Assembly (NCBI GenBank): GCA_014729445.1 | Contig: WJJX01000108.1 | Span: 1 to 46,405 of the forward strand | DNA length: 46,405 nucleotides | Source of the DNA: Candidatus Moraniibacteriota bacterium | GTDB lineage: Bacteria > Patescibacteriota > Minisyncoccia > CAIUEV01 > JAHKAQ01 | Direction: 5' to 3' | Part shown: piece by piece, positions 20,949-44,959 of the stretch | Layout of the letters: the number at the start of each line of letters is the position of its first letter | How positions within the stretch are numbered: the stretch's first letter is position 1 | Program-made: the position numbers and the translations under genes | Notes under the pieces: generated by a model | Seen by the model: only the letters and a program-made list of their open reading frames with translations | Databases searched by the model: none | What the model was told of the DNA's origin: nothing

Positions 20949-21728
20949 CTAAAATTCCAGGCTTTCTAAAACAGCCTTAAATTCGGCTTGACATTTATCA
21001 AATTCCGGACCGTAACAAATTTGTGAAATCTCAAAAATTCGTTCATCCTCCAAAACTCCGGCTAAAACTTCAAAAAAAATCTCCTCGCCTTCTTTGTTAA
21101 CAAAACTGTCCACTTTAATTCCGGTCAACTTGATTTGAGAACTTTCCAAAATTAAAGTTTTATCGGTATAATTGCCCCGGCCAAAATAATTCTTGAATTC
21201 ATTAATCAGCTTCTGAACCGATTCTTCGGGTTTTTCTGTCAGTGAATCTTCAACTCCGATGACGATTTCGTTCCTTGGGTCACCTTCCTGAAAAAGAGTA
21301 TACTGTCTTAAATAATCAACCCTTACTTTATCTTCTCTGGCCTTCCAGTCCTCGGCGTAAGTCAGGCTCATCCCTTTAGGGAGATGAAGAATATTTCTAG
21401 TTTGAACCTCATCTCTCTCACTATCTTCCCCAGAAATAGGCTTTGAAGTTTCACTATCCTTCAATCCCATTCCCGAAAAAAAACTCTTAACCTTATCGCC
21501 GCCTCTTTTTAATATCTTTTCTATCTGAGGCCAATCTCTCTTAACAAACCCTCTGCCTATCCCCTTGTAATAATAAAGATAAACCGAAACCGTAAAAACC
21601 AAAGCCAGAAGAAAGAAAAAAAACATTAATTTATCGTATCGATCCAGCCTTCTTTTCCTTTTTTCTCTTCTAACCGCCTGATTAATCAAATATTTGTTTA
21701 CATCTTTATCGGAATTTAAATTTTCCAT
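20949..21728 (-). CDS. Hypothetical single-pass membrane protein
   Basis: 259 aa. A basic N-terminus and one TM (LMFFFFLLALVFTVSVYLYYY) are followed by a roughly 190 aa extracytoplasmic domain. No motif recognised. Confidence 0.5.
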   Translation of the reverse strand: MENLNSDKDVNKYLINQAVRREKRKRRLDRYDKLMFFFFLLALVFTVSVYLYYYKGIGRGFVKRDWPQIEKILKRGGDKVKSFFSGMGLKDSETSKPISGEDSERDEVQTRNILHLPKGMSLTYAEDWKAREDKVRVDYLRQYTLFQEGDPRNEIVIGVEDSLTEKPEESVQKLINEFKNYFGRGNYTDKTLILESSQIKLTGIKVDSFVNKEGEEIFFEVLAGVLEDERIFEISQICYGPEFDKCQAEFKAVLESLEF

Positions 21729-21730
21729 AA

Positions 21731-22168
21731 CTATTCATTAAGTCTATTAATAATATGATCCTTATACCTCTCCGTATTAACGCCGTTTCGCTTCTGCAAT
21801 TTCTTAAAAATATTTTCGACATAAGTCAAAGTATTTGTCTCTTTCGGACTTCCGACGTTTTTTTTAAACTCCGGCTTCCTATTCTCTAAATTCAAAGCCC
21901 TTTTACGCCTTTCGGCCTCTTCAAGCCTTTCTTTTTCAATCTGCCGTCGCTGTTCTTCAAAAGCCTGTTTTTTTTCTTCAAAATCGCTTTGATTTCCGTA
22001 TCTCTTGTTTTCATAAAAACCATTGGCATCCGGCTTGTTTAAAAACCTCAAAGATCGCTCTCTTGATTCCCCAAAAGCGAAGGAAAAAGCCAAAAATATC
22101 CCAAAAACAAACGAAAAAATAGAAAACATTAAAATCAATAAAGGTGCGACCAGCCTGTTTTTAAACAT
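21731..22168 (-). CDS. Hypothetical single-pass membrane protein with charged coiled-coil region
   Basis: 145 aa with an N-terminal TM and an E/R/K-rich segment (EEQRRQIEKERLEEAERRKRA). It lies 2 nt upstream of the 259 aa gene. Confidence 0.45.
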   Translation of the reverse strand: MFKNRLVAPLLILMFSIFSFVFGIFLAFSFAFGESRERSLRFLNKPDANGFYENKRYGNQSDFEEKKQAFEEQRRQIEKERLEEAERRKRALNLENRKPEFKKNVGSPKETNTLTYVENIFKKLQKRNGVNTERYKDHIINRLNE

Positions 22169-25626: not shown

Positions 25627-26931
25627 TCACAATTTAGGATAAATCGGAAATTCCCGACACAAAGCTCTAACCTCCTCTTCAATCCGCTTAATTTTCTGCT
25701 CGTTCTCATAATTCTCCAAAGCGTCACAAATCGCTTTGCCTAAAATTTTCATTTCCCCTTCCTTCATTCCCCGAATAGTCGCGCAAGGCGTTCCAAGTCT
25801 AATTCCGCTTGGCGAAAAAGCCGGCCTTTTATCGCCTGGAATAGTGTTTTTATTTACCGAAATCCCGATTTTGTCTAACGTCTCCTCTGCTATTTTACCG
25901 TCCAAATCTTTACTTGTGACATCCATCAAAACCAAATGATTATCCGTTCCGCCGGAAACCAGCTTAAACCCTCGCTCTAGAAAAATACTCGCCAGCGCCG
26001 CCGCATTTTTAACCACCTGATTGGCCCACCTAAGAAACTCTTCTGTGGACGCTTCCCTCAAAGCAACCGCAATTCCTGCAATTGTGTGCTCATGCGGACC
26101 GCCCTGAAGCCCCGGAAAAATCGCCCGATCAATCAAAGTCGGCAAATTTCGTTCGCTTATCTTATCAGGCTTTTTTAAAGGATTGGAAGGATCACCATTG
26201 CACATAATAATACCGGCCCTTGGACCTCTAAGGGTTTTATGAGTGGTGGAAGTTATCACATGGGCATGTCCGACCGGAGAAACATGCTCGCCCGCAATCA
26301 CAAGACCGATAATGTGAGCAATATCGGCAACAAAAAAAGCATCGTACTTTCTTGCCAATTTCCCGAAAGTTTCAAAATCATATTCTCTCGGATAAGCGGT
26401 GGCCCCGGCAAAAATCAATTTTGGACGATGTTTCTTCAATAACTGTTCAACCTGATCAAAATCGATTCTTTCGTCTTTCCCGACTCCGTAACTGATCGAA
26501 TTAAAATAACGCCCCGAAAAATTAACTTTATGTCCATGGGTTAAGTGACCACCGTTACTCAAATCCATCCCCATAATCCTATCCCCCGGTTCACATAAGG
26601 CAAAATAAGCCGCCTGATTAGCCGGACTTCCCGAATATGGCTGAACATTCACATGATCGACGCCAAAAAGTGCTTTTGCTCGATCAATTGCCAACTGTTC
26701 AATCTGATCTGTATACTCCTGACCGCCATAATATCTTTTCTTTGGAAAACCTTCGGAATATTTATTATTAAAAATCGAGCCCATGGCTTCTAAAACCGCT
26801 CTTGAAGCATAACTTTCCGAAGGAATCATCTCCAAACCGTTTTTTTGTCGCTCCAATTCTTTTTCGATTAAATCATAAACTTCTTTATCCTCTTTTCTCA
26901 AATTTTGATAAACTATTTTCCTTTGCCGCAT
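25627..26931 (-). CDS. glyA: Serine hydroxymethyltransferase
   Basis: 434 aa with the PLP-lysine motif TSTTHKTLRGPRAG and the GGHLTHGH motif. Confidence 0.96.
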   Translation of the reverse strand: MRQRKIVYQNLRKEDKEVYDLIEKELERQKNGLEMIPSESYASRAVLEAMGSIFNNKYSEGFPKKRYYGGQEYTDQIEQLAIDRAKALFGVDHVNVQPYSGSPANQAAYFALCEPGDRIMGMDLSNGGHLTHGHKVNFSGRYFNSISYGVGKDERIDFDQVEQLLKKHRPKLIFAGATAYPREYDFETFGKLARKYDAFFVADIAHIIGLVIAGEHVSPVGHAHVITSTTHKTLRGPRAGIIMCNGDPSNPLKKPDKISERNLPTLIDRAIFPGLQGGPHEHTIAGIAVALREASTEEFLRWANQVVKNAAALASIFLERGFKLVSGGTDNHLVLMDVTSKDLDGKIAEETLDKIGISVNKNTIPGDKRPAFSPSGIRLGTPCATIRGMKEGEMKILGKAICDALENYENEQKIKRIEEEVRALCREFPIYPKL

Positions 26932-26950
26932 AATAAATAAATTTTACTAA

Positions 26951-27547
26951 TTAAAAAAACCGCTTTTTGATTATCTCCCAAATTTCATTTTTAACTTCAT
27001 CTATTGCTTGATTAGCATTAATAATGTACCAATCATATTTAAGCGCCAATTGCTTATGCGTCTCTTGAGCTCTTTTTAAAAGCTCGTTATCCCTGTCTAA
27101 TTTACTATGCTCCTGAGGCGATCGTTCAAACATTTCTCCGTCAAAAAAGACTGCCAAATCTTCATTACGGCTCGATTGATATAAATGCTCCATAATTTCC
27201 GGCTCCACTCCCATAGCGATTCCCCAAGCAGCCGCTGATCCAAAATAACTTTCGCAGACAATAAAAATTCCCTGATCCAGCTTCTTTTCCAGTTCAATGG
27301 TTTTTTGATTCTGATTAATAAAATTCAACAATTGAAACTCTCGATTGGATAAATTATACTTATCCTGATCCCTTAAAAAATTCATAATCAGACTTCCGGT
27401 CGGCTCCAGGCCGTAAACCGGAAATTTAATCGACTCCGCTTGATAACCTTTATCGCTTAATTTTTTGACCAGCAACTCGGCCTGAGTGGAACGACCCAAA
27501 TTATTAATCCCATAAAAAGCGATCAATTTTCCTTTTTTGTTTTGCAT
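26951..27547 (-). CDS. Thymidylate-kinase-like protein with non-canonical P-loop
   Basis: 198 aa, colinear with Tmk (KLIAFYGINNLGRSTQAELL..KGY....KFP). However, the Walker A is GINNLGRS (Arg where the invariant Lys sits) and DRY is replaced by ESY (IVCESYFGS). Confidence 0.6.
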   Translation of the reverse strand: MQNKKGKLIAFYGINNLGRSTQAELLVKKLSDKGYQAESIKFPVYGLEPTGSLIMNFLRDQDKYNLSNREFQLLNFINQNQKTIELEKKLDQGIFIVCESYFGSAAAWGIAMGVEPEIMEHLYQSSRNEDLAVFFDGEMFERSPQEHSKLDRDNELLKRAQETHKQLALKYDWYIINANQAIDEVKNEIWEIIKKRFF

Positions 27548-27633
27548 TTTATTTTATTATTGATAATTAATTCGCAAGGCTTCCATTAAAGCAGCAGGAC
27601 CCGCGAACCTTACAGAAGCTATTTATCACGTTT

Positions 27634-28326
27634 CTAGGCACTGCGAGCTACGCTGACATTCTCAAACTGGCTATTAAAATCCTTATAATACGCCTTGTAA
27701 TTTTCCTCTCTGGTCCATTTTTTAATATAACCCTCGGGCAAAGGCAAAGCCGGAAATCTGTCTAATTTATCCCAGTCATCGCCTTTATACATCGGATAAT
27801 TATAATAGGGATATTGTTTGGGAATACCTCGAATAAAAGCCACTTGCGGAATTTTCCAGCAGGTTCTGGCGTAATAAGCCCGATGCATTCCGTCGCAAAT
27901 TAAATTTGCCACCTTGCCATTGGCTTCAATACTCTCTTCCACAATTACCGGCAAAAAATCTCTGGGCTCCTTTTCGTCTTTAAGCCAAAATCTAACAAAA
28001 CCGTTTAAATTAAAAATATCGACTTTATATTTTCTCATTTCCCAATCCAAATTGGCGATATCCATCAAATTCTGCTCGATAATATACTTTTGCGGGCAAT
28101 ATAACTCTGTAGTATCCAGGTTCTCCAAAGTAACCACCGCATCTTTATAAGGCTGAATCTTAGACGCTTTTAACATTCTGACCGCCTTAAGCCGCTTTAT
28201 TAATTCCTTTTCACCAAATCTTTTAATTTTAATTATTTTCATATTTTTAGAATAAACATTAATTGCCTTATCAAGTTCCTCTAAAGCGACGCGATAAAAA
28301 AAATCATAAATATTTCTCCAAATCAT
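27634..28326 (-). CDS. ParB/sulfiredoxin-fold (DGxHR motif) protein, function unknown
   Basis: 230 aa. LPVIVEESIEANGKVANLICDGMHRAYYAR matches the ParB N-terminal/Srx core pattern (PV.V....G....DG.HR..A). The start overlaps the HAD gene by 23 nt, and an alternative ATG exists at 28242. Confidence 0.5.
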   Translation of the reverse strand: MIWRNIYDFFYRVALEELDKAINVYSKNMKIIKIKRFGEKELIKRLKAVRMLKASKIQPYKDAVVTLENLDTTELYCPQKYIIEQNLMDIANLDWEMRKYKVDIFNLNGFVRFWLKDEKEPRDFLPVIVEESIEANGKVANLICDGMHRAYYARTCWKIPQVAFIRGIPKQYPYYNYPMYKGDDWDKLDRFPALPLPEGYIKKWTREENYKAYYKDFNSQFENVSVARSA

Positions 28327-28948
28327 AAATTGTCGAAATATTCAAATCAGCGTGCTTTGATTTGTTCCAAACAATCACTGTCTGCATTCCCACTCTTTTA
28401 GCGGGAATAATATCCGCTTTTTCCTTATCTCCCACGTAAACATGTTCAATCGGCTTTCCTTTGGTCAATTTCAACATGGCATTATAAGCTCGGCCTTTGG
28501 TTTTACTCATTTTCCGATCTCCGCCAAAAATTCTAAATTCAAAATCGCTTTCAGGATCGAAGCCGATTTTTTTCAATTTCCGATAACTGCTTTCTTTGGC
28601 TGAAGTGGTAATCAAAAAAATGGTGTATTTCTCTTTTAAATAACGAACCATATTCACCAATTCTAAATCCGGCCTCAAAAACTTGTAAACTTCCACTTTG
28701 TTGGAAATATTGGCCGAAAATTGCTCGGCCTTGTCTATTCCTAAAAATCTAAAAGTATCGCTGCCGCTTCCAAAAATCTTATAATTTTTTTCAAAACGCT
28801 CTTCAGCTTCTTCGTAGCTAAGCTTTAACTCTTTACTCAAATCCTTATAAATAGTGTCTCGATAACATTTTTGAATTTCCTCGGTATCCTTATACAAAGT
28901 CTGATCCAAATCGAAACCCACAAATTTTATTTTTTCCTTTCTAAGCAT
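28304..28948 (-). CDS. HAD-superfamily phosphatase (nucleotidase-like)
   Basis: 214 aa with motif I FVGFDLDQTLY (DxDxT), motif II FLITTS and motif IV YVGDKEKAD. Confidence 0.75.
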   Translation of the reverse strand: MLRKEKIKFVGFDLDQTLYKDTEEIQKCYRDTIYKDLSKELKLSYEEAEERFEKNYKIFGSGSDTFRFLGIDKAEQFSANISNKVEVYKFLRPDLELVNMVRYLKEKYTIFLITTSAKESSYRKLKKIGFDPESDFEFRIFGGDRKMSKTKGRAYNAMLKLTKGKPIEHVYVGDKEKADIIPAKRVGMQTVIVWNKSKHADLNISTIYDLEKYL

Positions 28949-28957
28949 AGATTTTTT

Positions 28958-29494
28958 TTAAACCTGAGCCTCCAAATCATCCGCCGAAACGCGACCGCCT
29001 TTCCACTGGCCTCTACTCAAGCTGCTTTTGCCTTTAATTTCACTAAAAACAATAAAAGCGACTCTGGCTCCCAACTCAAATTTAAATTTCGCCGGCCCGA
29101 CATTTTTTAAGCCAAAAGTTAATTTGCCGTAATAACCGGGCGAGACCTTGCCGCTCATTAACATAACTCCGCTTCTAAAAAGCGTGCTTCTGGCAAAAAT
29201 CCGGGCAAAAGTTTGTTTGTCAATATTCACTTCTTCAATCGTTCTAATCAAGACAAAATCATCCGGATTCAAAATATAAAAACGGTCGCCTTCTTTTCTG
29301 GAAGCCGCAAGTTCGCTCATCGGCGTTTTCCTTTCTTCCAGGCCCAAAAAACCGCCCCCGGCAATCTGATAGACTTCATCCACTCTAAGATCAAAACCCG
29401 GCCCCTCCGGTTTTTCAAGTTCCCGTTCGCTTAAATTTTTAACCAATTCCTTTTCTTTAACTTTTTTCAAAATTTCATCGCCGCCTAAAATCAT
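28958..29494 (-). CDS. dCTP deaminase / dUTPase-fold protein with atypical active-site residues
   Basis: 178 aa. ARSTLFRSGV and SPGYYGKLTFGLKN....LGARVAFIVF are colinear with Dcd motifs GRSSLARLG and DPGW.G...LE..N....G..I..L.F. A Gly occupies the position of the catalytic Glu. Confidence 0.65.
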   Translation of the reverse strand: MILGGDEILKKVKEKELVKNLSERELEKPEGPGFDLRVDEVYQIAGGGFLGLEERKTPMSELAASRKEGDRFYILNPDDFVLIRTIEEVNIDKQTFARIFARSTLFRSGVMLMSGKVSPGYYGKLTFGLKNVGPAKFKFELGARVAFIVFSEIKGKSSLSRGQWKGGRVSADDLEAQV

Positions 29495-29707
29495 TTTTGT
29501 TTAATTTATTTGTTTAAAAAAAGCCAAAACAGAAATCCACGCGCCGTATTAATTTTAATTATTTTTTGGCTCCTTAAAGAACAATCTTGAGCCTAAAGCA
29601 AACTCTCCCATTTTAGGATAAATTAATTTTTCAGGTTTCTTTCCTTTCTCTTTAAATTAGCAAATTAATTAAATTTTTCAAATTTTTTAACAAAAAAAAC
29701 CTAGAAA

Positions 29708-31321
29708 TTAACCTTTATTGATTTTTCCTAACCTCTCTTTGAATCCTTTCTCCAGATCTTCCTTCATCTCGGCATGAAATTTGCTATCATATCCATCGAC
29801 AAAACCCAAGATAAACCCGCAAGTCTCCTCTTCCGGACAAAAGCCGGCATTAACACATTTAGGCTGAATCAAATAACTTAATTCTTTTAAACCCTTATAA
29901 TCTAAAATTTCTTTTAATTGACGAATCTCTTCTTTGGTTTGTCTAAAGATCTGCTCGTCGGCGGTTGGGCAACTTCTTAATTGATAATATCCGTCAACCA
30001 AATTATATAAATTATATTCCTGAACCATATCGATTCTAATCGCCCTTGGAATCACAAAAACGGCATCCTTTTCTTTGATTCCCAACTTCAGTAAATCATT
30101 GTAAGCCTTCATCGAAGTAAACAAAGCCCTCATATACAATTTTAATGTCTTTTCCTTAAGTCTTAATTTGGACGGAATGGCAAAGACTTTATCGATCTCA
30201 TCCAGAGCATCTTCACTCAATCTTGCTTTCTTGTTGAAATCTTTTTCATGTTTTTTAATCACCGACCAGGCTCTATCAATACAATAATAAATCGATTCCG
30301 TGGTAACGGGAGCGGTTCTATGTCTTTTTTTATCCCGCCAGACCCGCCAACTGACATTTGAAAGGGTTTTCACATTAACCGCATTCTGATAATCTCTAAC
30401 CAATTTTCTCTTTAAATCAAGCAGCTTTCTCCAGTTTTTCCTCAATTTTTCCTTCTCTAAAAACAACTCTTCTTGATATTTTTTAATTTCATTAACCCTT
30501 TCTTTGAAGCCCCGACCCAACAAAGCATCAACATTAAAAACCCTGACTTCGTCCTCTTCGGTTCCAAAATCGGCTTTAATATCGCGCACCAAATGATTTC
30601 TTTTGGGATCTTTAAACAAATTGGGATAGGGATAGGTGTTTTTAGGCGCCGCATCTCTGGTGGCAAAAAGCAAATCAATCCCCAGTCCTCTCATTTCCTT
30701 CTCGATCGCTTTTAAAAGAATGCCCCCCTCTTCAGGCATCCATTTTTTTTCCAGTTCATATTCTCTGGCAAAAGTAGCCAGACTTTCGGCCGGAAGGGTG
30801 ATTATCCCTGTTCCATAAGTTCCGTAATGCAGAATCTTTCCAGCTTCATCCTTAATCACTCCCAGCTTCAATAAATCGTTAAAAACCTTGATATTCAAAT
30901 TAGAGGCTTTTTCATAAAGTTCTTTGGCCTCAAAATTCTTAAAAATGGCGGCCGGACAAACATTATGCGCTTTACTCACTTCAGCGCGTCTGCCTGAATG
31001 CATCAAAGCAGAGCTATGGGTTATTCCGGTCAACATAGAACCAAGCATTTTACTGGCCTCAAAACTAAAACAAAAAACCGGCATTGTCGCCATCGAGGCA
31101 TGACCTCTAAGCGAAGATTTTCGAAGAATCAATTTTACCTTTTTAGTTATATCCTGATGTTTCCTTTGAGCTTCATCTATCAAATCCTCCACCGAATCTC
31201 CTTTAAAGGTTAACAAACCGGAGAAAGCGGCTATTTCCTGAGGGCTTAAATTCAAATTTCTAGTTTTATACTGCGGAATTATACCCAAAAACTTAATTTT
31301 CATATCTGTAGTATTTCTCAT
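29708..31321 (-). CDS. Tandem-domain ThyX-like (flavin-dependent thymidylate synthase family) protein, paralog B
   Basis: 537 aa. The N-half has RGHASMATMPVFCFSFEAS...SGRR (ThyX-like, RHR lost). The C-half has RHRTAPVTTES (RHR-x7-S, codons at 30317-30325) and VIPRA...NLYNLVDGYYQLRS. The helix NDLLKLG(V)IK is duplicated at aa 148 and aa 408. Confidence 0.7.
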   Translation of the reverse strand: MRNTTDMKIKFLGIIPQYKTRNLNLSPQEIAAFSGLLTFKGDSVEDLIDEAQRKHQDITKKVKLILRKSSLRGHASMATMPVFCFSFEASKMLGSMLTGITHSSALMHSGRRAEVSKAHNVCPAAIFKNFEAKELYEKASNLNIKVFNDLLKLGVIKDEAGKILHYGTYGTGIITLPAESLATFAREYELEKKWMPEEGGILLKAIEKEMRGLGIDLLFATRDAAPKNTYPYPNLFKDPKRNHLVRDIKADFGTEEDEVRVFNVDALLGRGFKERVNEIKKYQEELFLEKEKLRKNWRKLLDLKRKLVRDYQNAVNVKTLSNVSWRVWRDKKRHRTAPVTTESIYYCIDRAWSVIKKHEKDFNKKARLSEDALDEIDKVFAIPSKLRLKEKTLKLYMRALFTSMKAYNDLLKLGIKEKDAVFVIPRAIRIDMVQEYNLYNLVDGYYQLRSCPTADEQIFRQTKEEIRQLKEILDYKGLKELSYLIQPKCVNAGFCPEEETCGFILGFVDGYDSKFHAEMKEDLEKGFKERLGKINKG

Positions 31322-31435
31322 AACTTTTATTTTATTATTTAAAATTTAGAGTGAATTCGGTTGAATTATTGCCAAGGCAGGGGATAGCTAAAAATCTTAT
31401 TAAAAAAATCAACTACAAATTCTCTTAAACATTTG

Positions 31436-31464
31436 ATTTTATATAAAAATCAAAAATTTGTCAC
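31436..31464 (-). promoter_or_regulatory. Possible promoter for thyX-like B, overlapped by a 9-5-9 palindrome
   Basis: The minus strand reads GTGACA (31459-31464), a 17 nt spacer, then TAAAAT (31436-31441). The palindrome TTTGATTTT-ATATA-AAAATCAAA spans 31432-31454. Confidence 0.3.
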
Positions 31465-31537
31465 ACCGACTGACAATACCACAAACAAGGGATATCTGTT
31501 TTTTAATTTATTTTTAATTTAAAATAGAGATCTAATG

Positions 31538-32233
31538 TCAATAAGAATTTACTTCTGTCAATCCGACCGCTTCCCAAATCATCTGCGCAATCTCCTTTTT
31601 CGAAAGAATCTTTCCATTTTTCACACAATCAATCCTCTGCACCGCTCCCGATTTTACTAAATCCTCGGCGCTTTTTTTTGCATTATTCAGATGAGAGGCA
31701 CTCTCTTCATAAACGTCTTTTTTTCCACCCAGATACTGCTTTTTTTCGGTTTTATTGCCGGCCAATTTTCTCGCGATATCCAAAGAGACATCCAAATAAA
31801 TAATCAAATCCGGTTTGGGAATCTTAAACACCTCATACTCCATTTTTTCAAGCCATTTTAGATATTTTAATCTCTCTTTTTTGCCTTTTAACTTACCTCC
31901 CTGATGAATAAAATTGGAGCTAACATATCTATCCGACAAAACAATATAACCCTGCTTGATCCATTTCAAAATTTCCCCGCTTGATTCAAAACGGTCACAA
32001 GCGTAGAGAACCGACGTTACATAAGGATCCAAAGTCAAAAAATCTCCATGCTCGCCTTTTAAACATTCTCCGATTAATTTTCCAAAAAAATTATCATAAT
32101 ATCTTGGAAAATCGATTTTTTTCACCTTTCGTCCCTCTTTCTTTAATCGATCGAAAAGCATTTCGGTTTGTGTCGCCTTCCCGCTGCCGTCGATTCCTTC
32201 AATAATAACAAATTTTCCGGCTTTGTTTCGCAT
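31538..32233 (-). CDS. tmk: Thymidylate kinase (canonical)
   Basis: 231 aa with a P-loop IIEGIDGSGKATQ, FPRY and the DRYVSS motif. Confidence 0.9.
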   Translation of the reverse strand: MRNKAGKFVIIEGIDGSGKATQTEMLFDRLKKEGRKVKKIDFPRYYDNFFGKLIGECLKGEHGDFLTLDPYVTSVLYACDRFESSGEILKWIKQGYIVLSDRYVSSNFIHQGGKLKGKKERLKYLKWLEKMEYEVFKIPKPDLIIYLDVSLDIARKLAGNKTEKKQYLGGKKDVYEESASHLNNAKKSAEDLVKSGAVQRIDCVKNGKILSKKEIAQMIWEAVGLTEVNSY

Positions 32234-32238
32234 AAATT

Positions 32239-32721
32239 CTAATTAAAAACCACCTTCATAACCTCAACCTCGCTCTGCCCGAAATAACTCCAGGCCACCT
32301 CGTCTCCATCATAATCTTTTAAATAAAGAACTCTTTTGATTTTAGAATTAATAATAGATTTGGTGCACATCGCGCAGGGCCGATAGGTTACATATAAATC
32401 GGATCCGGAAATATTAACCCCCAAAGAGGCGGCATTCGAAATCGCGTTTAATTCGGCGTGACTTCCCCGGCAGAGACCCTGATGTTTCAAAACTTTAATG
32501 CCCACCTTTTTGGCGCAGCCCACCTCAAAACAATGCTCCAATCCTTTTGGAGGACCATTATAGCCCATACCCAAAAGTTGATTTTCTCTCACCAAAACCG
32601 CTCCCACCTGATAATGCAAACAAACCGACCTGGTCTTTATCTGATCGGTTAGATTAAACCAAAACTCCTCCCATTTAGGTCTTTTGATTCCCTTTTTTAT
32701 CCTCCAAACTTTATTTTTCAT
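32239..32721 (-). CDS. dCMP deaminase (cytidine/deoxycytidylate deaminase zinc-binding family)
   Basis: 160 aa with zinc motifs HAELNAI and PCAMCTKSI, and ComEB-like size. Confidence 0.88.
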   Translation of the reverse strand: MKNKVWRIKKGIKRPKWEEFWFNLTDQIKTRSVCLHYQVGAVLVRENQLLGMGYNGPPKGLEHCFEVGCAKKVGIKVLKHQGLCRGSHAELNAISNAASLGVNISGSDLYVTYRPCAMCTKSIINSKIKRVLYLKDYDGDEVAWSYFGQSEVEVMKVVFN

Positions 32722-32792
32722 ATTTTTATTTATCGATTAAGAACTCTCCTTTGCAGGGTGCCTGTTTGAATTAATAAGCCCGTCATTCATCT

Positions 32793-34178
32793 CTACACCA
32801 ATCTTTTCACAAAATAATTCTCTTCCTGCCTGTTAATCAAATCTCTCCCGCAATAAAGAGGACCTCTCCAGCACTTTCCCTTTCTGTAGCAGGGAGGCTC
32901 AAAAAATTTAACAAGTTCCGTATCCCCCAGTCTTTCTTTAATCTCGGACCTGAGCTGACGGCTCAATTCATAGATATCCCTGGTATTATGCCAGCATAAA
33001 CGACCGGCCTGTTCATGACAAATCGAATTTAAGGAGGATTTTTTAGTATATTCAACCATAGCTCCCAAAGGCGCCAACACCGTGGCCAAAGTTTTATCCA
33101 TATTTTTATAGATAGATCTCCATTGCACCAAAATTTTTCGAGCATCTTTAGCCAAACCCAATGCCTTGGCGATAACCGATAGATAAATATCTCCGGTAAA
33201 AACCGGACGGCTTCTTCTGATAGTTCTATATCTCTGATCCTGACTCATAGTCGCAATCGGCAAATTCACCTTCACAACCAAATCCTTCAAGTTGTTATTC
33301 ATAAAAATCGGCAGATAATGAAGTTTGTCTATCTCATACATCGCGTTTTCCCGAGGGACAATAAAGGAAGCGGCATTTTTTAAAAACTTCAAATCATAAT
33401 TCATAAGTTTCAACTTAAGTTCGAAATCAACCGCTCCTTCTTTCTTTTCTTTCATTTTCGGATACCAAAAATTTTTCTTCCTTTTTTTGGCTTTAAATAA
33501 AAAACTTAAGTCAGGATATTTATTAATAACTTGAGCCGCCATGGAATCCAAAAGAAAGCGCATAACCGGATTCCAGCTTGATTCATACAAAGCGGCCAAA
33601 CTCAACAGATTAATCGAATAAACCAAATTAGTGGGAAATATAGAAGGGATAAAAATCCGCAACTGTTCCTGGGCAATTTTTTCGCTTCTATCTTCAATGA
33701 ACTGATCGCTGGCATAAGGTCTTTCTTTCTTCAATAATTCCTGAGCCATATTTTGAGCCTTGGGCAAATTTAATTGGTAAGTTTCATGGCTCTTTTTTAC
33801 ATAATCTATAACGGCTTTAATTTCCGACTTTTTCAAGGCCCAAAAACCTTTAATGTAATCCTCGATAAAATCTATATCCTCTTCATTATAAAATCTAAGC
33901 CCGAAACTGCCGCTCTTTTGATCGCTATTATAAAAAGGATTCACCAAGTGCAAACCAAAAATGACGTCTCCAATGCTTACGTTTTTGATTTGAAAATTTA
34001 AATTAAAATGAGAAAACGGCGTATGATGCCCGGTATTAAACAATTTTTCCTCAATGTCTATCTCTTTACCAGCCTCACTTTTACTGTTTCCATAACACTC
34101 TTTATAAACGTTAAAAAGCAGTTTTTGAGGATCAAGCTTTGTATGAGAAATCAATTTGATTTGGATAGTCTTTTTCAT
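32793..34178 (-). CDS. Tandem-domain ThyX-like protein, paralog A
   Basis: 461 aa. The N-half TGHHTPFSHFNLNFQIK matches the ThyX HGHETPFEH block, but RHR is replaced by LHL. The C-half has QRYRTIRRS (RYR) and LAPLG...SLNSICHEQAGRLCWHNTRDIYEL. Confidence 0.65.
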   Translation of the reverse strand: MKKTIQIKLISHTKLDPQKLLFNVYKECYGNSKSEAGKEIDIEEKLFNTGHHTPFSHFNLNFQIKNVSIGDVIFGLHLVNPFYNSDQKSGSFGLRFYNEEDIDFIEDYIKGFWALKKSEIKAVIDYVKKSHETYQLNLPKAQNMAQELLKKERPYASDQFIEDRSEKIAQEQLRIFIPSIFPTNLVYSINLLSLAALYESSWNPVMRFLLDSMAAQVINKYPDLSFLFKAKKRKKNFWYPKMKEKKEGAVDFELKLKLMNYDLKFLKNAASFIVPRENAMYEIDKLHYLPIFMNNNLKDLVVKVNLPIATMSQDQRYRTIRRSRPVFTGDIYLSVIAKALGLAKDARKILVQWRSIYKNMDKTLATVLAPLGAMVEYTKKSSLNSICHEQAGRLCWHNTRDIYELSRQLRSEIKERLGDTELVKFFEPPCYRKGKCWRGPLYCGRDLINRQEENYFVKRLV

Positions 34179-34228: not shown

Positions 34229-34906
34229 CTAGTCTTTTATTTTAATACTTGGCCCCATTGTGGAAGTAAGATAGAGCCTTTTGATCATTTTCCCCTTCAC
34301 TTTTTGAGGTCTGTTTTTTTCCAGCTTTTCGATAAAATCCTTGTAATTTTCCAACAATTTCTTTTTTCCAAAGGAAAATTTGCCGAGAGCTTGATGAATA
34401 ACTCCAGTTGGGTCGTTTTTAACCGTGACCATTCCTTTTTTTAACAGTTCCACCGTATCTTTGATCTCTTTGGTTACCGTATTATTTTTGGGGCTGGGCA
34501 TTAATCCTTTTGGACCTAATATTTTGGCTATTTTAGCTAATTTAGGCATCATCGACGGATCGGCAATCACTATGTCAAAATCAAGCTTTCTCTTTTTATT
34601 TTTAATTCTTTCAATATCCGCTTCACCCAAAATCACATCCGCGCCGGAAGCTTCCGCCTCTTTGGCTTTAGTGCCTTCGGCAAAAACCGCGACTTTCACT
34701 TTTTTTCCTGTTCCATGGGGCAAATTCAAAGAAAATTTAAAATTCTGCTCCGACTTTTTAGGATCGATATTTAAGTTAACATGGACCTCTAATGTCTCAT
34801 CAAACTTAACCTTGTTCATGGCAAGTAAAAAATCGAGAGCCTGACTGACGTCTTTTATTTCTTCCAATTTAGCTTCATTGTTTCGATAACGCTTACTTCT
34901 TTTCAT
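34229..34906 (-). CDS. rplA: 50S ribosomal protein L1
   Basis: 225 aa with a typical L1 sequence (KFDETLEVHVNLNIDPKK..Q.....NLPHGTGK..KVAVF), downstream of rplK. Confidence 0.95.
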   Translation of the reverse strand: MKRSKRYRNNEAKLEEIKDVSQALDFLLAMNKVKFDETLEVHVNLNIDPKKSEQNFKFSLNLPHGTGKKVKVAVFAEGTKAKEAEASGADVILGEADIERIKNKKRKLDFDIVIADPSMMPKLAKIAKILGPKGLMPSPKNNTVTKEIKDTVELLKKGMVTVKNDPTGVIHQALGKFSFGKKKLLENYKDFIEKLEKNRPQKVKGKMIKRLYLTSTMGPSIKIKD

Positions 34907-34937: not shown

Positions 34938-35366
34938 TTATTTATTCCAATCCACGTTCACCCCCATACTTCTGGCTGTTCCTCCAATAATTTTTTTGGC
35001 CTCCTCGACGTCGTCGGCGTTTAGATCCTCCTTTTTTCGCTCGGCAATTTCAGCCAGTTGAGTGGCGGTAATGGTCCCCACTTTATCCTTTTGAGGGACT
35101 CCCGAGCCTTTTTTTAATTTCAAAGCTTTTTTGATCAATTCGGCCGCCGGAGGACTCTTTAAACTAAAATCAAAACTTCTGTCTTCATAAACGTTAATGT
35201 CCACCGGTATAACATCCCCCATCATCTCCTTTGTTTTTTCATTGAATTGAGTACAAAAATCCTGAATATTTAAACCATGCTGGCCTAACGCCGGACCGAC
35301 CGGAGGACTCGGATTGGCTTTACCGGCCGGAATCTGTAGCTTAATCACTGTTTTTAACTTTTTCAT
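34938..35366 (-). CDS. rplK: 50S ribosomal protein L11
   Basis: [38 protein letters not shown] is the canonical L11 N-terminus. I prefer the second ATG (35366) over the ORF-track start (35390) because of homology with the usual L11 start. Confidence 0.93.
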
Positions 35367-35404
35367 CTTATTGAATCTTAAAAAAACCAATTATTTTTAT
35401 TGCG

Positions 35405-35461: not shown

Positions 35462-36004
35462 TTACAATTTTTTTAACTGCAAAAAATCCAAATCAACGGG
35501 AGTCTCCCGATTAAACATATTCACCAGAACTTTCACCTTGCCTCTTTCTTTATCAACAAACTGAACCTTTCCGTCAAAATCTTTAAAAGGACCGTCCACA
35601 ATTCTTACAGGATCGCCTTTAAGCAGATTAATTTCGTATTTCGGTTCCTCAACCCCCATTCTCTTCATAATATTATCCACTTCCTGCTTGCTCATTGGAA
35701 TCGGAACAGTACCGGAACCCACAAATCCGGTCACATTAGGCGTATTTCTAACCACATACCAGGAATCGTCGGTAACAATCATCTCAACCATCACATAACC
35801 GGGATAAATTCTTTCCTTGATTACCTTTCTTTTGCCGTTTTTAATCTTGATCTTTTTTTCCGTTGGAACCAAAACATTAAAAATCTTATCCTGCATATCC
35901 AGAGATTCGATCCTCTGGCGTAAATTTTTAGCTACATTATCCTCGTATCCGGAATAAGTATGTAAAACATACCACGCTTTTTCTTTTGGTAAATCCTGTT
36001 TCAT
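35462..36004 (-). CDS. nusG: Transcription termination/antitermination factor NusG
   Basis: 180 aa with an NGN domain (WYVLHTYSGYEDNV) and a KOW motif (GDPVRIVDGPFKDFDGKV). Confidence 0.95.
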   Translation of the reverse strand: MKQDLPKEKAWYVLHTYSGYEDNVAKNLRQRIESLDMQDKIFNVLVPTEKKIKIKNGKRKVIKERIYPGYVMVEMIVTDDSWYVVRNTPNVTGFVGSGTVPIPMSKQEVDNIMKRMGVEEPKYEINLLKGDPVRIVDGPFKDFDGKVQFVDKERGKVKVLVNMFNRETPVDLDFLQLKKL

Positions 36005-36396: not shown

Positions 36397-37215
36397 TCAA
36401 CCACAAAACTCTCTAAACATTTTTGCTGCATTCTTAAAATTATCTTCTATGTAAGGCTCCCCTTTATCATTTGTCATACCAGGAAAATATATATCGCCTA
36501 CTTTTTTTAAGACTTCCATATTCGGAAACGGAGAACTCGGTTCATAATTAAAAAAAACATCTAATGTTTTCGGATTAAAAGATCTAATTTTATTAACTAC
36601 ATTATCCAGCGTATTCCCACTTACAATATCTTTATCAAATAAAATAATTCTACTTGATTCCAATTTATGTTCAAGATTATTTAAGCCGATAAATTTAACG
36701 ATCTTCCTATCATCTCCCCTCTCTACTTGAATAATTTCCGTTTTTAATCCAACCAATAAAAATACACAACCTGAAAAAATCCCCCCTTTTGCAATTGACA
36801 GACCTAAATCATAATTTTCGACAATCTCTTTAGCCAGAAGAAGCGTATCCGCTACTCTAAAAGAAGGATAGTCTTGCCTAAATCCATTATCTGTTAAACT
36901 TTTTATATACTTATTGTAGACCTTATTTTTAATCCTATCCCACATAAAAAAATATATATCAACCCTAACATGCTCTGACTCATTTTCAAAAACACCGCTA
37001 TCCAATCCCTGCATAACTACCTTTTCCATCATTTCCCAATTTTTAGCCTCTTTATAACAACTATATGCAAGAGATAAAAACCCTTCAGATAAAGCATCTT
37101 TAGCCAAAGATTCCATTTCGGGAACGTCAATTTTAGAAGAATTAGTCAAACTTTTATACTTTCTCCAATAATCTTTCTCAAAAGTATCCTCTTCTCCTTT
37201 TTGCTCAATATTCAT
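36397..37215 (-). CDS. Phosphoribosyltransferase-like protein with unknown N-terminal domain
   Basis: 272 aa. The C-terminal half has SIAKGGIF... and RIILFDKDIVSGNTL, which resembles the type I PRTase PRPP-binding loop (hydrophobic x4-D-x-D-x-x-x-G-x-T). Confidence 0.5.
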   Translation of the reverse strand: MNIEQKGEEDTFEKDYWRKYKSLTNSSKIDVPEMESLAKDALSEGFLSLAYSCYKEAKNWEMMEKVVMQGLDSGVFENESEHVRVDIYFFMWDRIKNKVYNKYIKSLTDNGFRQDYPSFRVADTLLLAKEIVENYDLGLSIAKGGIFSGCVFLLVGLKTEIIQVERGDDRKIVKFIGLNNLEHKLESSRIILFDKDIVSGNTLDNVVNKIRSFNPKTLDVFFNYEPSSPFPNMEVLKKVGDIYFPGMTNDKGEPYIEDNFKNAAKMFREFCG

Positions 37216-43753: not shown

Positions 43754-44959
43754 TTATTTAGCTTCTTTAACTATATCAAATACAATCCGGCCAAATTTAT
43801 CAAACTTATTTTGAATAAAGTTCAGATCATCTTCATCCATTAAATATATAATATCGCTAATTGTTAATTTCATAAAATTTTCCTGCGCATCAGAAGATTC
43901 TCTTTGTTTTTGACGAAGCTTCGAGAGTTTTTCGTTTTCCATTATTTTTGCTTTTAGGATATCTTGAATCAAAGAATTTAATAAATTGCTGGTAAAAGCA
44001 TAGCCCTTTTGATCTTTTTTCATAAACCAAGAGCCTAGAAAAAATCTTTTATCTTGAGAAATCGAAGCCCAGTCAGATAAAAATTCAAAAGCCTCTTTGG
44101 AACTGCTCATCTTAATTCCCCTAGCTTCAAGTTCTTTATTCAATTTACTCCAATCTCTTTGACTCCTACCTGAAAATCCAAACTCTGTAAACAAAATACC
44201 ATGAGCTAATTCATTGGCTTCAATACAAGTATTATAAGTTGCTTGATCAAAATCTTCCCATAAAGGATTCCGATCAGTTAGCTTTTTTATTTCCTCATAC
44301 TGCTGGTTCAAATGCGCCCTGTTTACAAAAGAGAGCCCAAAAATATTTTGACCACTCGGCAAAAAATTGGATTCATTCACATAAAACAATTCTGTTTTTT
44401 GGTCAAGCACCCCTTCTTCTTTAAAACAATGCACTAAACCGGCATAATCTGAATAATTAACCTCTTTTCTCCCTTTTTCTTCAATTTCAATAAAGGCATC
44501 CCCCCCTAGATTGCGATAAAGAGTATTATAAAATTGACCATTTCTAGCAAAATAAAGAATCAAATCATGCAAAGCCGTATTAAATCGATTTTCCCCCATC
44601 GAAGAGTGCACTAATCCATTCAACAATTTAAACAAAGTATCATCTGGAGCCTGCTTAGAATATTTATTAAATTGAGTTATAGTCGAAGCTATTATGTCAT
44701 AAGTCAAACTTTCCTCAGTTTCATTTGCATCTAAATCCGAAATAGTAAACTGTGTTTCATTTACCTTTCTTGCTATAAGACTTACAAACCTCCTTGTTTC
44801 TTCATGAACTTCACCCTCCTTTGCCAAAACTTCCCCGACTTTTGATCCCCCGCTACTCCAAAAATATAAAAATGCAAACGCAAAGTTTCGCAAAAAATCC
44901 CTTCTTGACATTGAAAAATCCTCTTCTTTATATTCCTTATGTTCATAAGGATTTTCCAT
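43754..44959 (-). CDS. Hypothetical protein with a twin-arginine (Tat)-like signal
   Basis: 401 aa. MSRRDFLRNFAFAFLYFWSSGG at aa 17-38 matches the S-R-R-x-F-L-K consensus plus an h-region. The true start may be the ATG at 44911. No catalytic motif recognised. Confidence 0.5.
   Translation of the reverse strand: MENPYEHKEYKEEDFSMSRRDFLRNFAFAFLYFWSSGGSKVGEVLAKEGEVHEETRRFVSLIARKVNETQFTISDLDANETEESLTYDIIASTITQFNKYSKQAPDDTLFKLLNGLVHSSMGENRFNTALHDLILYFARNGQFYNTLYRNLGGDAFIEIEEKGRKEVNYSDYAGLVHCFKEEGVLDQKTELFYVNESNFLPSGQNIFGLSFVNRAHLNQQYEEIKKLTDRNPLWEDFDQATYNTCIEANELAHGILFTEFGFSGRSQRDWSKLNKELEARGIKMSSSKEAFEFLSDWASISQDKRFFLGSWFMKKDQKGYAFTSNLLNSLIQDILKAKIMENEKLSKLRQKQRESSDAQENFMKLTISDIIYLMDEDDLNFIQNKFDKFGRIVFDIVKEAK

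Follow-up and report, generated by a model that had tools for sequence, protein, structure and literature searches.

The window analysed here is the whole 46,405 nucleotide (nt) stretch of contig WJJX01000108.1 (assembly GCA_014729445.1, Candidatus Moraniibacteriota bacterium), and the subject is an array of nucleotide-metabolism genes on its minus strand between positions 25627 and 34178. This array is probably the Patescibacteria (Moranbacteria-like) form of a conserved chromosomal housekeeping operon for deoxythymidine mono- and diphosphate (dTMP and dTDP). It lies behind nusG-rplK-rplA and holds both isoforms of the thymidylate synthase ThyX (ThyX-A and ThyX-B), both isoforms of thymidylate kinase (Tmk), a putative dUTPase stand-in (the Dcd-like protein) and an accessory pair of a HAD phosphatase and a ParB-fold protein (ParB-CE).

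The core chemistry was deduced from family membership and intact catalytic motifs. Deoxycytidine monophosphate (dCMP) deaminase would deliver deoxyuridine monophosphate (dUMP), and serine hydroxymethyltransferase (SHMT) would deliver methylene-tetrahydrofolate. ThyX-B, a tandem-domain protein with four Cys and intact motifs, would methylate dUMP, and the canonical Tmk would phosphorylate dTMP. ThyX-A and ThyX-B, as well as the classical and the EDY-type Tmk, would be alternative isoforms, each the sole occupant of the same slot elsewhere; the window lineage would hold both of each pair, and the redundant copies would have drifted. The Dcd-like protein would hydrolyse dUTP, perhaps also dCTP, to the monophosphate by a non-canonical catalytic set-up. 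ParB-CE would bind a cytidine or uridine deoxynucleotide, and together with HAD it might perform phosphoryl transfer or hydrolysis, for example of dCTP or dCDP to dCMP, feeding the deaminase-synthase pair.

The locus points to several uncharacterised players in thymidylate synthesis, a pathway known from textbooks and targeted by drugs. ParB-CE, present in at least four bacterial phyla and in phage contigs, could be a missing step of dCMP/dUMP supply or a new nucleotide kinase. A Dcd-fold family stands in place of dUTPase yet is devoid of the residues of known dUTPases and Dcd, and tandem-domain four-Cys ThyX proteins form a large class. What is new about the locus is these families, none of them characterised (ParB-CE and its HAD partner, the Gly-variant Dcd fold and the tandem four-Cys ThyX); the type of system as such is not.

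An earlier note on this DNA, made from the letters alone, had described paired canonical and divergent enzymes; the members of these pairs were instead found singly, in the same slot, in other Patescibacteria. What the note had held in reserve, a consolidated dTTP operon with degenerate paralogs, came close to the best explanation. Its expectation of something unusual embedded in the cluster was borne out by the ParB-fold family, which is tied to thymidylate genes across phyla and on some phage contigs, and by a clade-wide active-site change in ThyX-A.

Gene order and recurrence in Patescibacteria

The ten-gene order, the coordinates and the two spacers of 216 and 213 nt given in the earlier note were reproduced from the positions of the open reading frames (ORFs), all ten of which lie on the minus strand. 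All family assignments were recovered in Pfam (Thy1 twice, dCMP_cyt_deam_1, Thymidylate_kin twice, DCD, HAD_2, ParB-CE and SHMT). The features are listed in the direction of transcription, with protein lengths in amino acids (aa).

35462-36004, minus strand: nusG, upstream anchor
34938-35390, minus strand: rplK, upstream anchor
34229-34906, minus strand: rplA, upstream anchor
32793-34178, minus strand: ThyX-like A (461 aa); Pfam Thy1, AlphaFold2 (AF2) model, motif alignments
32239-32721, minus strand: dCMP deaminase, ComEB type (160 aa); Pfam dCMP_cyt_deam_1 75 bits, NCBIfam ComEB 109 bits
31538-32233, minus strand: canonical Tmk (231 aa); Pfam Thymidylate_kin 75.6 bits
31322-31537: AT-rich spacer of 216 nt between tmk and thyX-B
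29708-31321, minus strand: ThyX-like B (537 aa); Pfam Thy1 87.0 bits
29495-29707: AT-rich spacer of 213 nt between thyX-B and the Dcd-like gene
28958-29494, minus strand: DCD-fold (Dcd-like) protein (178 aa); Pfam DCD 80.9 bits
28304-28948, minus strand: HAD phosphatase (214 aa); Pfam HAD_2 54.8 bits
27634-28326, minus strand: ParB-CE ORF, likely gene 27634-28242 (202 aa); Pfam PF24392
26951-27547, minus strand: Tmk-like protein (198 aa); Pfam Thymidylate_kin 54 bits
25627-26931, minus strand: SHMT (434 aa); Pfam SHMT 520 bits, NCBIfam 557 bits, over cutoff

Among the cluster proteins, SHMT alone exceeded a curated NCBIfam cutoff. The zinc motifs HAE and PCxxC were present in the dCMP deaminase translation, and its orthologs occupy the same operon slot in relatives. 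By family, this enzyme would convert dCMP to dUMP and SHMT would supply methylene-tetrahydrofolate. The nearest relatives of the cluster proteins were found in metagenome-assembled genomes of Moranbacteria and other Patescibacteria.

Gene neighbourhoods of relatives, cited here by locus handle (L001 and so on), were compared for conservation of the cluster, and the operon recurred behind nusG-rplK-rplA in many Patescibacteria. The nusG/rplK/rplA anchor was located upstream of thymidylate genes in L001, L002, L170 and L172 and in 26 of the 80 loci of the ThyX-A family. The order is secE-nusG-rplK-rplA-dCMP deaminase-ThyX-B-Dcd-like-HAD-ParB-CE-SHMT-FolD in L001 and Dcd-ThyX-B-SHMT-FolD-Dcd-like...Tmk in L002. 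The 80 metagenomic A-family loci contained dCMP deaminase (37), Tmk or Tmk-like (46), SHMT (19) and nusG/rplK (26), and every one of them was devoid of ThyX-B, Dcd-like, HAD and ParB-CE. The slot of ThyX-A in these A-type loci reads nusG-rplK-(rplA)-dCMP deaminase-(Tmk)-A-(Tmk)-SHMT-FolD. ThyX-B is the sole ThyX of the operon in L001, L002, L007 and L008. Both proteins occur together only in the A clade of the window, in five of five members (window, L170, L005, L006 and L172). The A-deaminase-B arrangement was seen again in L005, L006, L170 and L172, four assemblies made independently from different samples, and this recurrence argues against chance synteny. Between the window and the relative represented by L172/L173, identity was lowest for ThyX-A (45%) and Tmk-like (47%) and reached 57-79% for the other proteins.

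In L005 (6307-8343), a tRNA-guanine transglycosylase gene (Tgt, 273 bits) and an opposite-strand ORF of 297 aa are inserted between ThyX-B and Dcd-like. In L170 (6823-8484), a PMT-family glycosyltransferase gene is inserted between Tmk and ThyX-B. Both insertions fall at sites that match the 213 and 216 nt spacers of the window, where the operon tolerates interruption. A recent insertion of the ThyX-B-to-SHMT block into an A-type operon, an idea taken from L170, was rejected; tblastn placed the N-terminus of ThyX-B at the contig end after the PMT gene. An overlapping pair of ThyX-B (65% identity to the window copy) and Dcd-like genes was also detected at 10001-12141 of L171, a 174 kb contig binned as Desulfobacterales, among chemotaxis and transporter genes; this pair reflects either horizontal transfer or mis-binning.

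ThyX and Tmk isoforms

For ThyX assignment, the Pfam Thy1 cutoff of 24.8 bits and the TIGR02170 equivalog cutoff of 87.9 bits were applied. Whole-protein Thy1 scores were 52.4 bits for ThyX-A and 87.0 bits for ThyX-B, both over the cutoff; the TIGR02170 scores (35.4 and 48.5 bits, respectively) were both below it. Because each half of ThyX-B matched Thy1 independently (N-half 31.9, C-half 58.1 bits), ThyX-B was taken as a tandem ThyX. For ThyX-A, the N-half scored 47.6 bits and the C-half gave no Thy1 match. Its AF2 model (predicted local distance difference test score, pLDDT, 88.7) has a repeated secondary-structure pattern, and this predicted structure suggests a second ThyX-fold domain. Foldseek superposed the model on solved ThyX at template modelling scores (TMt) of 0.58-0.69, with about half of the query covered. 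Single-sequence searches of the PDB with ThyX-A or ThyX-B returned zero matches.

In Patescibacteria, over 200 clusters of proteins of about 535 aa make up the ThyX-B family, and about 48 clusters of about 455 aa the ThyX-A family. In a profile-profile comparison of the two, the alignment was restricted to a C-terminal segment with four invariant Cys, LRxC...PxCx5Cx5-6CG (C395, C430, C436 and C443 in A; C451, C489, C495 and C501 in B). These Cys could coordinate Zn or an Fe-S cluster beside the substrate-activating Arg, and such a site might relate to flavin reduction in these anaerobes. The first Cys stands two residues past an invariant Arg in LR context, which in B was aligned with the LR segment of ThyX.

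Family alignments were used for motif assignment. In the N-half of the A family, GHHTxxQH and SGRY were aligned to ThyX GHxSxLEH and SGRY, and RHR is missing family-wide. The C-half of the A family carries QRHRT without Ser at +8; the window protein reads RYR there, as the earlier note had read from the letters, and LHL in its N-half. ThyX-B retains RHRX7S in its C-half (RHRTAPVTTES) together with all family invariants. Its N-half has SGRR, and RHR is missing there by reading of the family consensus. An equivalence of this SGRR with ThyX SGRY was considered and left unconfirmed: a profile of the N-half alone found no ThyX in the PDB, though the N-half matches Pfam Thy1. ThyX active sites lie at subunit interfaces, and the distribution of RHR in the C-half and SGR in the N-half may represent complementary half-sites after duplication.

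Five members of the window clade of ThyX-A were compared with 30 other A sequences over 89 near-invariant positions. Of these, 58 were retained in all five clade members and seven were altered in at least four. The same replacement residue was found for R91S, S307P and Y371L in 5/5 and for K392G and E438R in 4/5; A24V, H317Y (within RHR) and F331I were limited to the window protein. Where ThyX has S88-G-R90-Y91, the clade reads SGS[FYL] (SGSF in the window). The equivalent of R90 (R91) is Ser in all five, and that of Y91 is Phe or Leu in three. In T. maritima ThyX, the exchanges S88A, R90A and Y91A severely slowed the dUMP-dependent step (PMC8316439). On these alignments, the ThyX-A active site appears to have undergone a clade-wide, selectively maintained change where ThyX-B is present. 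ThyX-A has probably lost the ability to methylate dUMP efficiently and may be retained either as a partner of ThyX-B or with an altered substrate. ThyX-B is the probable working thymidylate synthase, as judged from context and intact invariants.

Compared with T. maritima TM0449 and M. tuberculosis ThyX, both window proteins share the Thy1 match, the A model superposes on ThyX monomers, B has RHRX7S, and the SHMT context (with FolD in relatives) fits methylene-folate-dependent dUMP methylation. Unlike these enzymes, the window proteins have two ThyX-type domains per chain (verified for both halves of B; the second of A from the model), their families carry RHR only in the C-half and S-G-R only in the N-half, and the four-Cys segment is without counterpart in solved ThyX. 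ThyX-A was further compared with PolB of polyoxin biosynthesis, a UMP/dUMP methylase (PDB 4p5b). Like ThyX-A, PolB is a second ThyX-family gene product in its genome; it is a structural neighbour and a precedent for neofunctionalisation (PMC5954106). In contrast, PolB is single-domain and encoded in a nucleoside-antibiotic gene cluster, and ThyX-A is encoded in a ribosomal/housekeeping operon.

The canonical Tmk has an intact P-loop (GIDGSGKAT) and SDRY, and its TIGR00041 score of 83.1 bits is marginally below the cutoff of 83.25; the Tmk-like protein scored 42.1 bits. Both align end to end with type I thymidylate kinases (human, Plasmodium). In the alignment of the Tmk-like protein to solved thymidylate kinases, GLDRSGKST/CDRY corresponds to GINNLGRST/CESY, in agreement with the earlier reading of a Walker A Lys changed to Arg and of DRY changed to ESY. 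For the Tmk-like family, 1502 relatives were collected by exhaustive search and the top 90 representatives were used for motif counts. The subfamily signature is GINNLGK[ST]TQ...NR...AEDY, and EDY replaces DRY in 74 of 90. Of 88 representatives, 86 have the P-loop Lys, and Arg stands there in the window protein alone, which further differs by Gln at the NR Arg (3/90) and Ser at the EDY Asp (2/90, the window and one other). Since three phosphoryl-transfer residues are lost, the window Tmk-like protein is probably inactive as a kinase.

The substitutions had been taken in the earlier note as signs of divergent copies. This stood for the Tmk-like Lys-to-Arg exchange, which is unique to the window, and failed for the N-half RHR loss (A family), the EDY-type motif and the Dcd Gly, all of which are traits of whole families. 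The Tmk-like ortholog of L173 is intact, and canonical Tmk is missing from the A-dCMP deaminase-B operon of L172 from the same sample. The operon of the window is a natural experiment with two isoforms of an essential enzyme in one operon, in which Tmk-like decays and ThyX-A is kept with a changed active site.

In Patescibacteria, Tmk or Tmk-like domains were also found fused to canonical dUTPase, dihydrofolate reductase (DHFR), MazG or a nucleoside deoxyribosyltransferase-like domain (proteins P0212-P0219 and P0229). Loci of such Tmk or Tmk-like fusions are:

L139, 6903-7961
L152, 11965-13008
L120, 12062-13351

The fusions to dUTPase, DHFR and MazG place the EDY-type Tmk family in dTTP metabolism, and by their domain content the fusion proteins are predicted compact multi-enzyme dTTP modules.

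The Dcd-like protein and the HAD-ParB-CE pair

For the Dcd-like protein, the score for Pfam DCD was above cutoff (80.9 vs 27 bits) and those for TIGR02274 (72.6 vs 92.8) and PRK02253 (56.9 vs 130) were below. In the alignment to the dCTP deaminase structure 4xjc, VDPGFNGQITLEL corresponds to VSPGYYGKLTFGL. The catalytic Glu (E138 in E. coli, TLEL) is replaced by Gly (TFGL), as the earlier note had proposed, and this Gly is invariant in eight family members. The motif-III Asp, which the note had not mentioned, is missing too (VSPGY vs VDPGF); family-wide, this residue is variable (S, G, P or A). Invariant family motifs are LS.RE..PEG.GFDLR, R[ST]TLFRSG (RSTLFRSG in the window protein) and a C-terminal SRGQW.GGR. 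Judged by these residues, Dcd-like proteins form a conserved family with a seemingly different catalytic set-up and are not decayed Dcd. A paper on CPR (Candidate Phyla Radiation)-related Dcd2 was retrieved from the literature; it covers the canonical active Dcd, not the Gly-variant family.

Like Dcd, bifunctional Dcd-Dut and the DCD-fold archaeal dUTPase (PF22769), the Dcd-like protein has a full-length DCD-fold match, an RS[ST]..R nucleotide-binding motif, a Gly/Arg-rich C-terminus and a thymidylate synthase gene next to its own. Unlike them, it has neither the deaminase Glu nor the motif-III Asp, has its own invariant motifs and stays under all NCBIfam cutoffs. In A-type loci of at least 8 kb, Dcd-like was present in 0 of 45 and canonical Dut in 14 of 45, adjoining ThyX-A and in some cases fused to Tmk. 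In B-type or cassette loci, Dcd-like was present in 9 of 11 and Dut in 0 of 11. From this distribution, Dcd-like would be the dUTPase stand-in of B-type operons. If it acts as a dUTPase, L002 would hold a complete dCTP-to-dTDP route (Dcd, Dcd-like, ThyX-B, SHMT, FolD and Tmk).

ParB-CE matched Pfam PF24392 with 189.4 bits (cutoff 23). Its likely start is the internal Met at 28242, giving 202 aa as in all homologs. The family alignment contains 27 invariant residues, including EESxE and DGxHR. The AF2 model had a pLDDT of 92.7, and the best Foldseek matches were sulfiredoxin (Srx) with ATP (probability 1.0), ParB with CDP, SbnI and SerK; superposition on ParB/Srx structures was limited to about 107 of 202 residues. 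A single-sequence search of the PDB gave zero matches. As in ParB/sulfiredoxin enzymes, ParB-CE has the core fold and a G-x-H-R phosphate-binding motif (GCHR in Srx). It differs from them in having Met for the Cys nucleophile, its own EESxE and an aromatic-rich C-terminal half. Features of partition ParB were absent: no match to ParBc or to a helix-turn-helix family was obtained in Pfam, and no DNA-binding or dimerisation domain was detected by Pfam or Foldseek. The neighbours of ParB-CE in 71 loci were nucleotide-metabolism genes, not parA/parS.

Relatives of ParB-CE, scanned with one genome per species, were present in 234 species from Patescibacteria, Desulfomonilaceae/Syntrophaceae, magnetotactic Nitrospirota and Peptococcaceae. 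In most loci dCMP deaminase is directly upstream, with HAD between the two in Firmicutes and Nitrospirota. Canonical Dcd is added in Nitrospirota. In Peptococcaceae, SHMT is a neighbour, and the block is flanked by glyA and the atp operon. In the 52 non-CPR loci whose flanks extend 3 kb or more in both directions, a cytosine-nucleotide deaminase was found within 3 kb in 34, a ThyA-like gene in 13 and no partner in five. The trio of Dcd-like, HAD and ParB-CE stands alone in L173, apart from any ThyX. Distant relatives of ParB-CE were also detected on five viral contigs. One of these, a phage contig of 286 kb, has the genes for HAD, ParB-CE, dCMP deaminase and a ThyA-like protein side by side, and on two other viral contigs ParB-CE is near the same ThyA-like gene. 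Among 50,697 deposited phage genomes, none with ParB-CE was found. A literature search yielded no paper on the ParB-CE family or on a link of ParB-CE to thymidylate genes.

Directly downstream of ParB-CE in 14 loci, a protein of about 490 aa is encoded that combines a methanogen-type ThyA domain with MtrA-like pterin-binding segments; in five loci the two genes abut or overlap by a few bases. This ThyA-like protein (L009, 4889-6337; L013, 10609-12072; L165, 9218-10720; and 11 further loci, in bacteria and phages) scored 95-119 bits for TIGR03283, under the cutoff, and has MtrA-like/PterinBD-DUF4346 segments. Its domain content suggests a possible thymidylate synthase that carries its own pterin-binding module. 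The literature search for DUF4346 was likewise without a relevant paper. A fusion of ParB-CE and ThyA-like in Desulfovirgula (L081, ORF of 734 aa) was rejected; its first approximately 245 residues are other-frame read-through of GC-rich DNA. In 36 Desulfomonilaceae loci (L019-L080), a co-directional gene some 1.5 kb upstream of ParB-CE, ahead of the dCMP deaminase gene, encodes a patatin-like protein of about 359 aa (weak Pfam match, 23 bits); this may be lineage-specific synteny or indicate a further partner.

The HAD protein of the window has an intact motif I (DLDQT, DxDxT), as have the CPR orthologs. Its nearest named families are pyrimidine 5'-nucleotidases (TIGR02253, 74 bits; Pyr-5-nucleotidase, 62 bits), both under cutoff. 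The HAD partners of ParB-CE in Nitrospirota, Firmicutes and the phage contig (L015, 9057-9752; L165, 7312-7995) read DIGST or DIGQT and are without the Asp+2 general acid/base. The DxDxT and DxGxT groups did not cluster by BLAST and, by sequence, may not be orthologous.

An action of ParB-CE on a pyrimidine nucleotide is suggested because it is paired with thymidylate synthases of both unrelated folds, mostly together with a dCMP-level deaminase. The most economical role for ParB-CE and HAD would be supply of the monophosphate (dCTP or dCDP to dCMP, or dUTP to dUMP); alternatively, ParB-CE could be a deoxynucleoside monophosphate (dNMP) kinase or a dCTP-sensing regulator. ParB-CE as a replacement of Tmk was weakened as a candidate, as the operons of the window, L005 and L006 hold canonical Tmk.

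Alternative readings and chromosomal surroundings

Several points weigh against the region being a dTMP/dTDP housekeeping operon. ThyX-B is remote from canonical ThyX (48.5 vs 87.9 bits for TIGR02170, SGRR instead of SGRY, no PDB match by sequence), and the conservation of ThyX-A over deep divergence with a changed site is explained by a new function no less well than by a role as passive partner. The Dcd-like family is without the Asp used by every characterised dUTPase, and its role as dUTPase was taken from distribution only. HAD-ParB-CE is not obligatory for the dCMP deaminase route, because 37 A-type loci hold the deaminase without the pair; any function given to the pair is conjecture, and its presence in phage contigs beside the ThyA-like gene would also fit a modified-nucleotide pathway.

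A modified-pyrimidine pathway, which the earlier note had preferred in its hypermodified form, lost ground and is now held to be quite improbable. ThyX-A would be a neofunctionalised flavin-dependent C5-transferase with a substrate other than dUMP or a product other than dTMP, and ParB-CE or Tmk-like would be a dedicated kinase. Dcd-like would clear the competing deoxynucleoside triphosphate (dNTP), HAD would remove the canonical monophosphate, and the outcome would be either a nucleoside metabolite or DNA with a non-canonical base. In a variant that is just as hard to credit, the ThyX-A clade, ParB-CE as a new nucleotide kinase, HAD and a Dcd-fold dNTPase would make a non-canonical pyrimidine deoxynucleotide entering the DNA of these Patescibacteria or of phages with the related block. 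The logic of deaminase, thymidylate synthase (TS)-family enzyme, triphosphate-to-monophosphate step and kinase/phosphatase is the same as in T4-type dNTP rerouting (gp56 dCTPase/dUTPase, dCMP deaminase, TS or dCMP hydroxymethylase, dNMP kinase) and in phage thymidine hypermodification. The ThyX-A replacements are identical among members that are only 45-67% identical to the window copy, which points to purifying selection on the new state, and the enzymatic members of the ParB/Srx fold (Srx, SerK, SbnI) are kinases. The related block of HAD, ParB-CE, deaminase and ThyA-like on the jumbo-phage contig and the two further viral contigs also speak for this reading, and PolB is a precedent for a ThyX paralog with altered substrate that was also matched by Foldseek (PMC5954106; 4p5b). 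However, the setting is ribosomal/housekeeping, and no transferases, DNA glycosylase-like genes or DNA-level modification genes were found in the 46 kb window. According to PMC8989533, phage hypermodification pathways combine a TS paralog of a phage family with enzymes that modify the DNA after replication (DNA kinase, transferases). The window cluster differs in being without such enzymes, chromosomal and syntenic across a bacterial phylum. Searches with ParB-CE, HAD and ThyX-B gave zero family matches in PHROGs and none in PADLOC, and the deposited phage genomes, as stated, yielded no ParB-CE. Moreover, the proposed parts do not travel together, since Dcd-like-HAD-ParB-CE occurs without ThyX-A in L001, L007 and L008 and without any ThyX in L173. 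The P-loop Lys-to-Arg change of Tmk-like, unique to the window, is of a kinase-inactivating kind, and the HAD-ParB-CE pair of Peptococcaceae lies between glyA and the atp operon.

Another reading, itself rather unlikely, differs from the dTMP/dTDP operon described above only in the roles of accessory proteins. Here ThyX-A would be a non-catalytic or regulatory subunit of an A-B hetero-oligomer with turnover at B-derived sites only, and HAD, ParB-CE and Dcd-like would be regulatory or dNTP-sanitising. It is favoured by the constant company of A and B in the window clade (5/5), by their common C-terminal four-Cys segment and by the interface position of ThyX active sites. ParB-fold proteins bind CTP (ParB with CDP is among the Foldseek matches), dCMP deaminase is classically activated by dCTP as an allosteric effector, and the nearest named families of HAD include house-cleaning pyrimidine nucleotidases such as YjjG. 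The 27 invariant residues of ParB-CE, with acidic clusters and DGxHR, are nevertheless more catalyst-like than sensor-like, and A and B are too diverged to align beyond the Cys segment, so that a conserved hetero-interface is not evident. An anti-phage nucleotide-depletion system, or an assembly artefact joining the operons of two strains, has a probability close to negligible. For defence, dCMP deaminase matched PADLOC dCTPase (96.9 bits) and the NCBIfam 'anti-phage dCTP deaminase' (77.5 bits vs cutoff 400), but the matches were limited to the common deaminase domain (residues 81-139 vs model positions 433-491 of 630) and no other cluster protein matched PADLOC. The presence of two ThyX and two Tmk genes might in principle stem from a chimeric assembly of the operon; against this stand the A-deaminase-B arrangement of the four independent assemblies and an even base composition throughout the region.

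The two spacers (31322-31537 and 29495-29707) gave zero matches in an Rfam search with E up to 1. In the 216 nt spacer upstream of thyX-B, a promoter-like site was located at 31464 to 31436 (GTGACA, 17 nt, TAAAAT; 10 of 12 matches), which could be a separate transcription start for the genes from thyX-B to SHMT. Promoter-like sites were not enriched across the region (28 vs 23.4 +/- 5.3 expected from shuffles), and the same applied to terminator-like sites.

The rest of the 46 kb window is housekeeping (UvrA, L19, malic enzyme, envelope genes) with two tRNA genes, and no mobile elements were found among the window ORFs. Mid-sized ORFs of 272, 259, 145 and 401 aa (36397-37215, 20949-22168 and 43754-44959 among them) gave zero Pfam matches with E up to 1e-4; the ORF of 272 aa sits just upstream of nusG. 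The host DNA is low-GC. GC skew is negative window-wide, at -0.17 to -0.41 per 2 kb (1-46405), and the large ORFs lie almost exclusively on the minus strand. The uniform negative skew and the minus-strand bias suggest that the whole window is on one replichore, with its genes co-oriented with replication.

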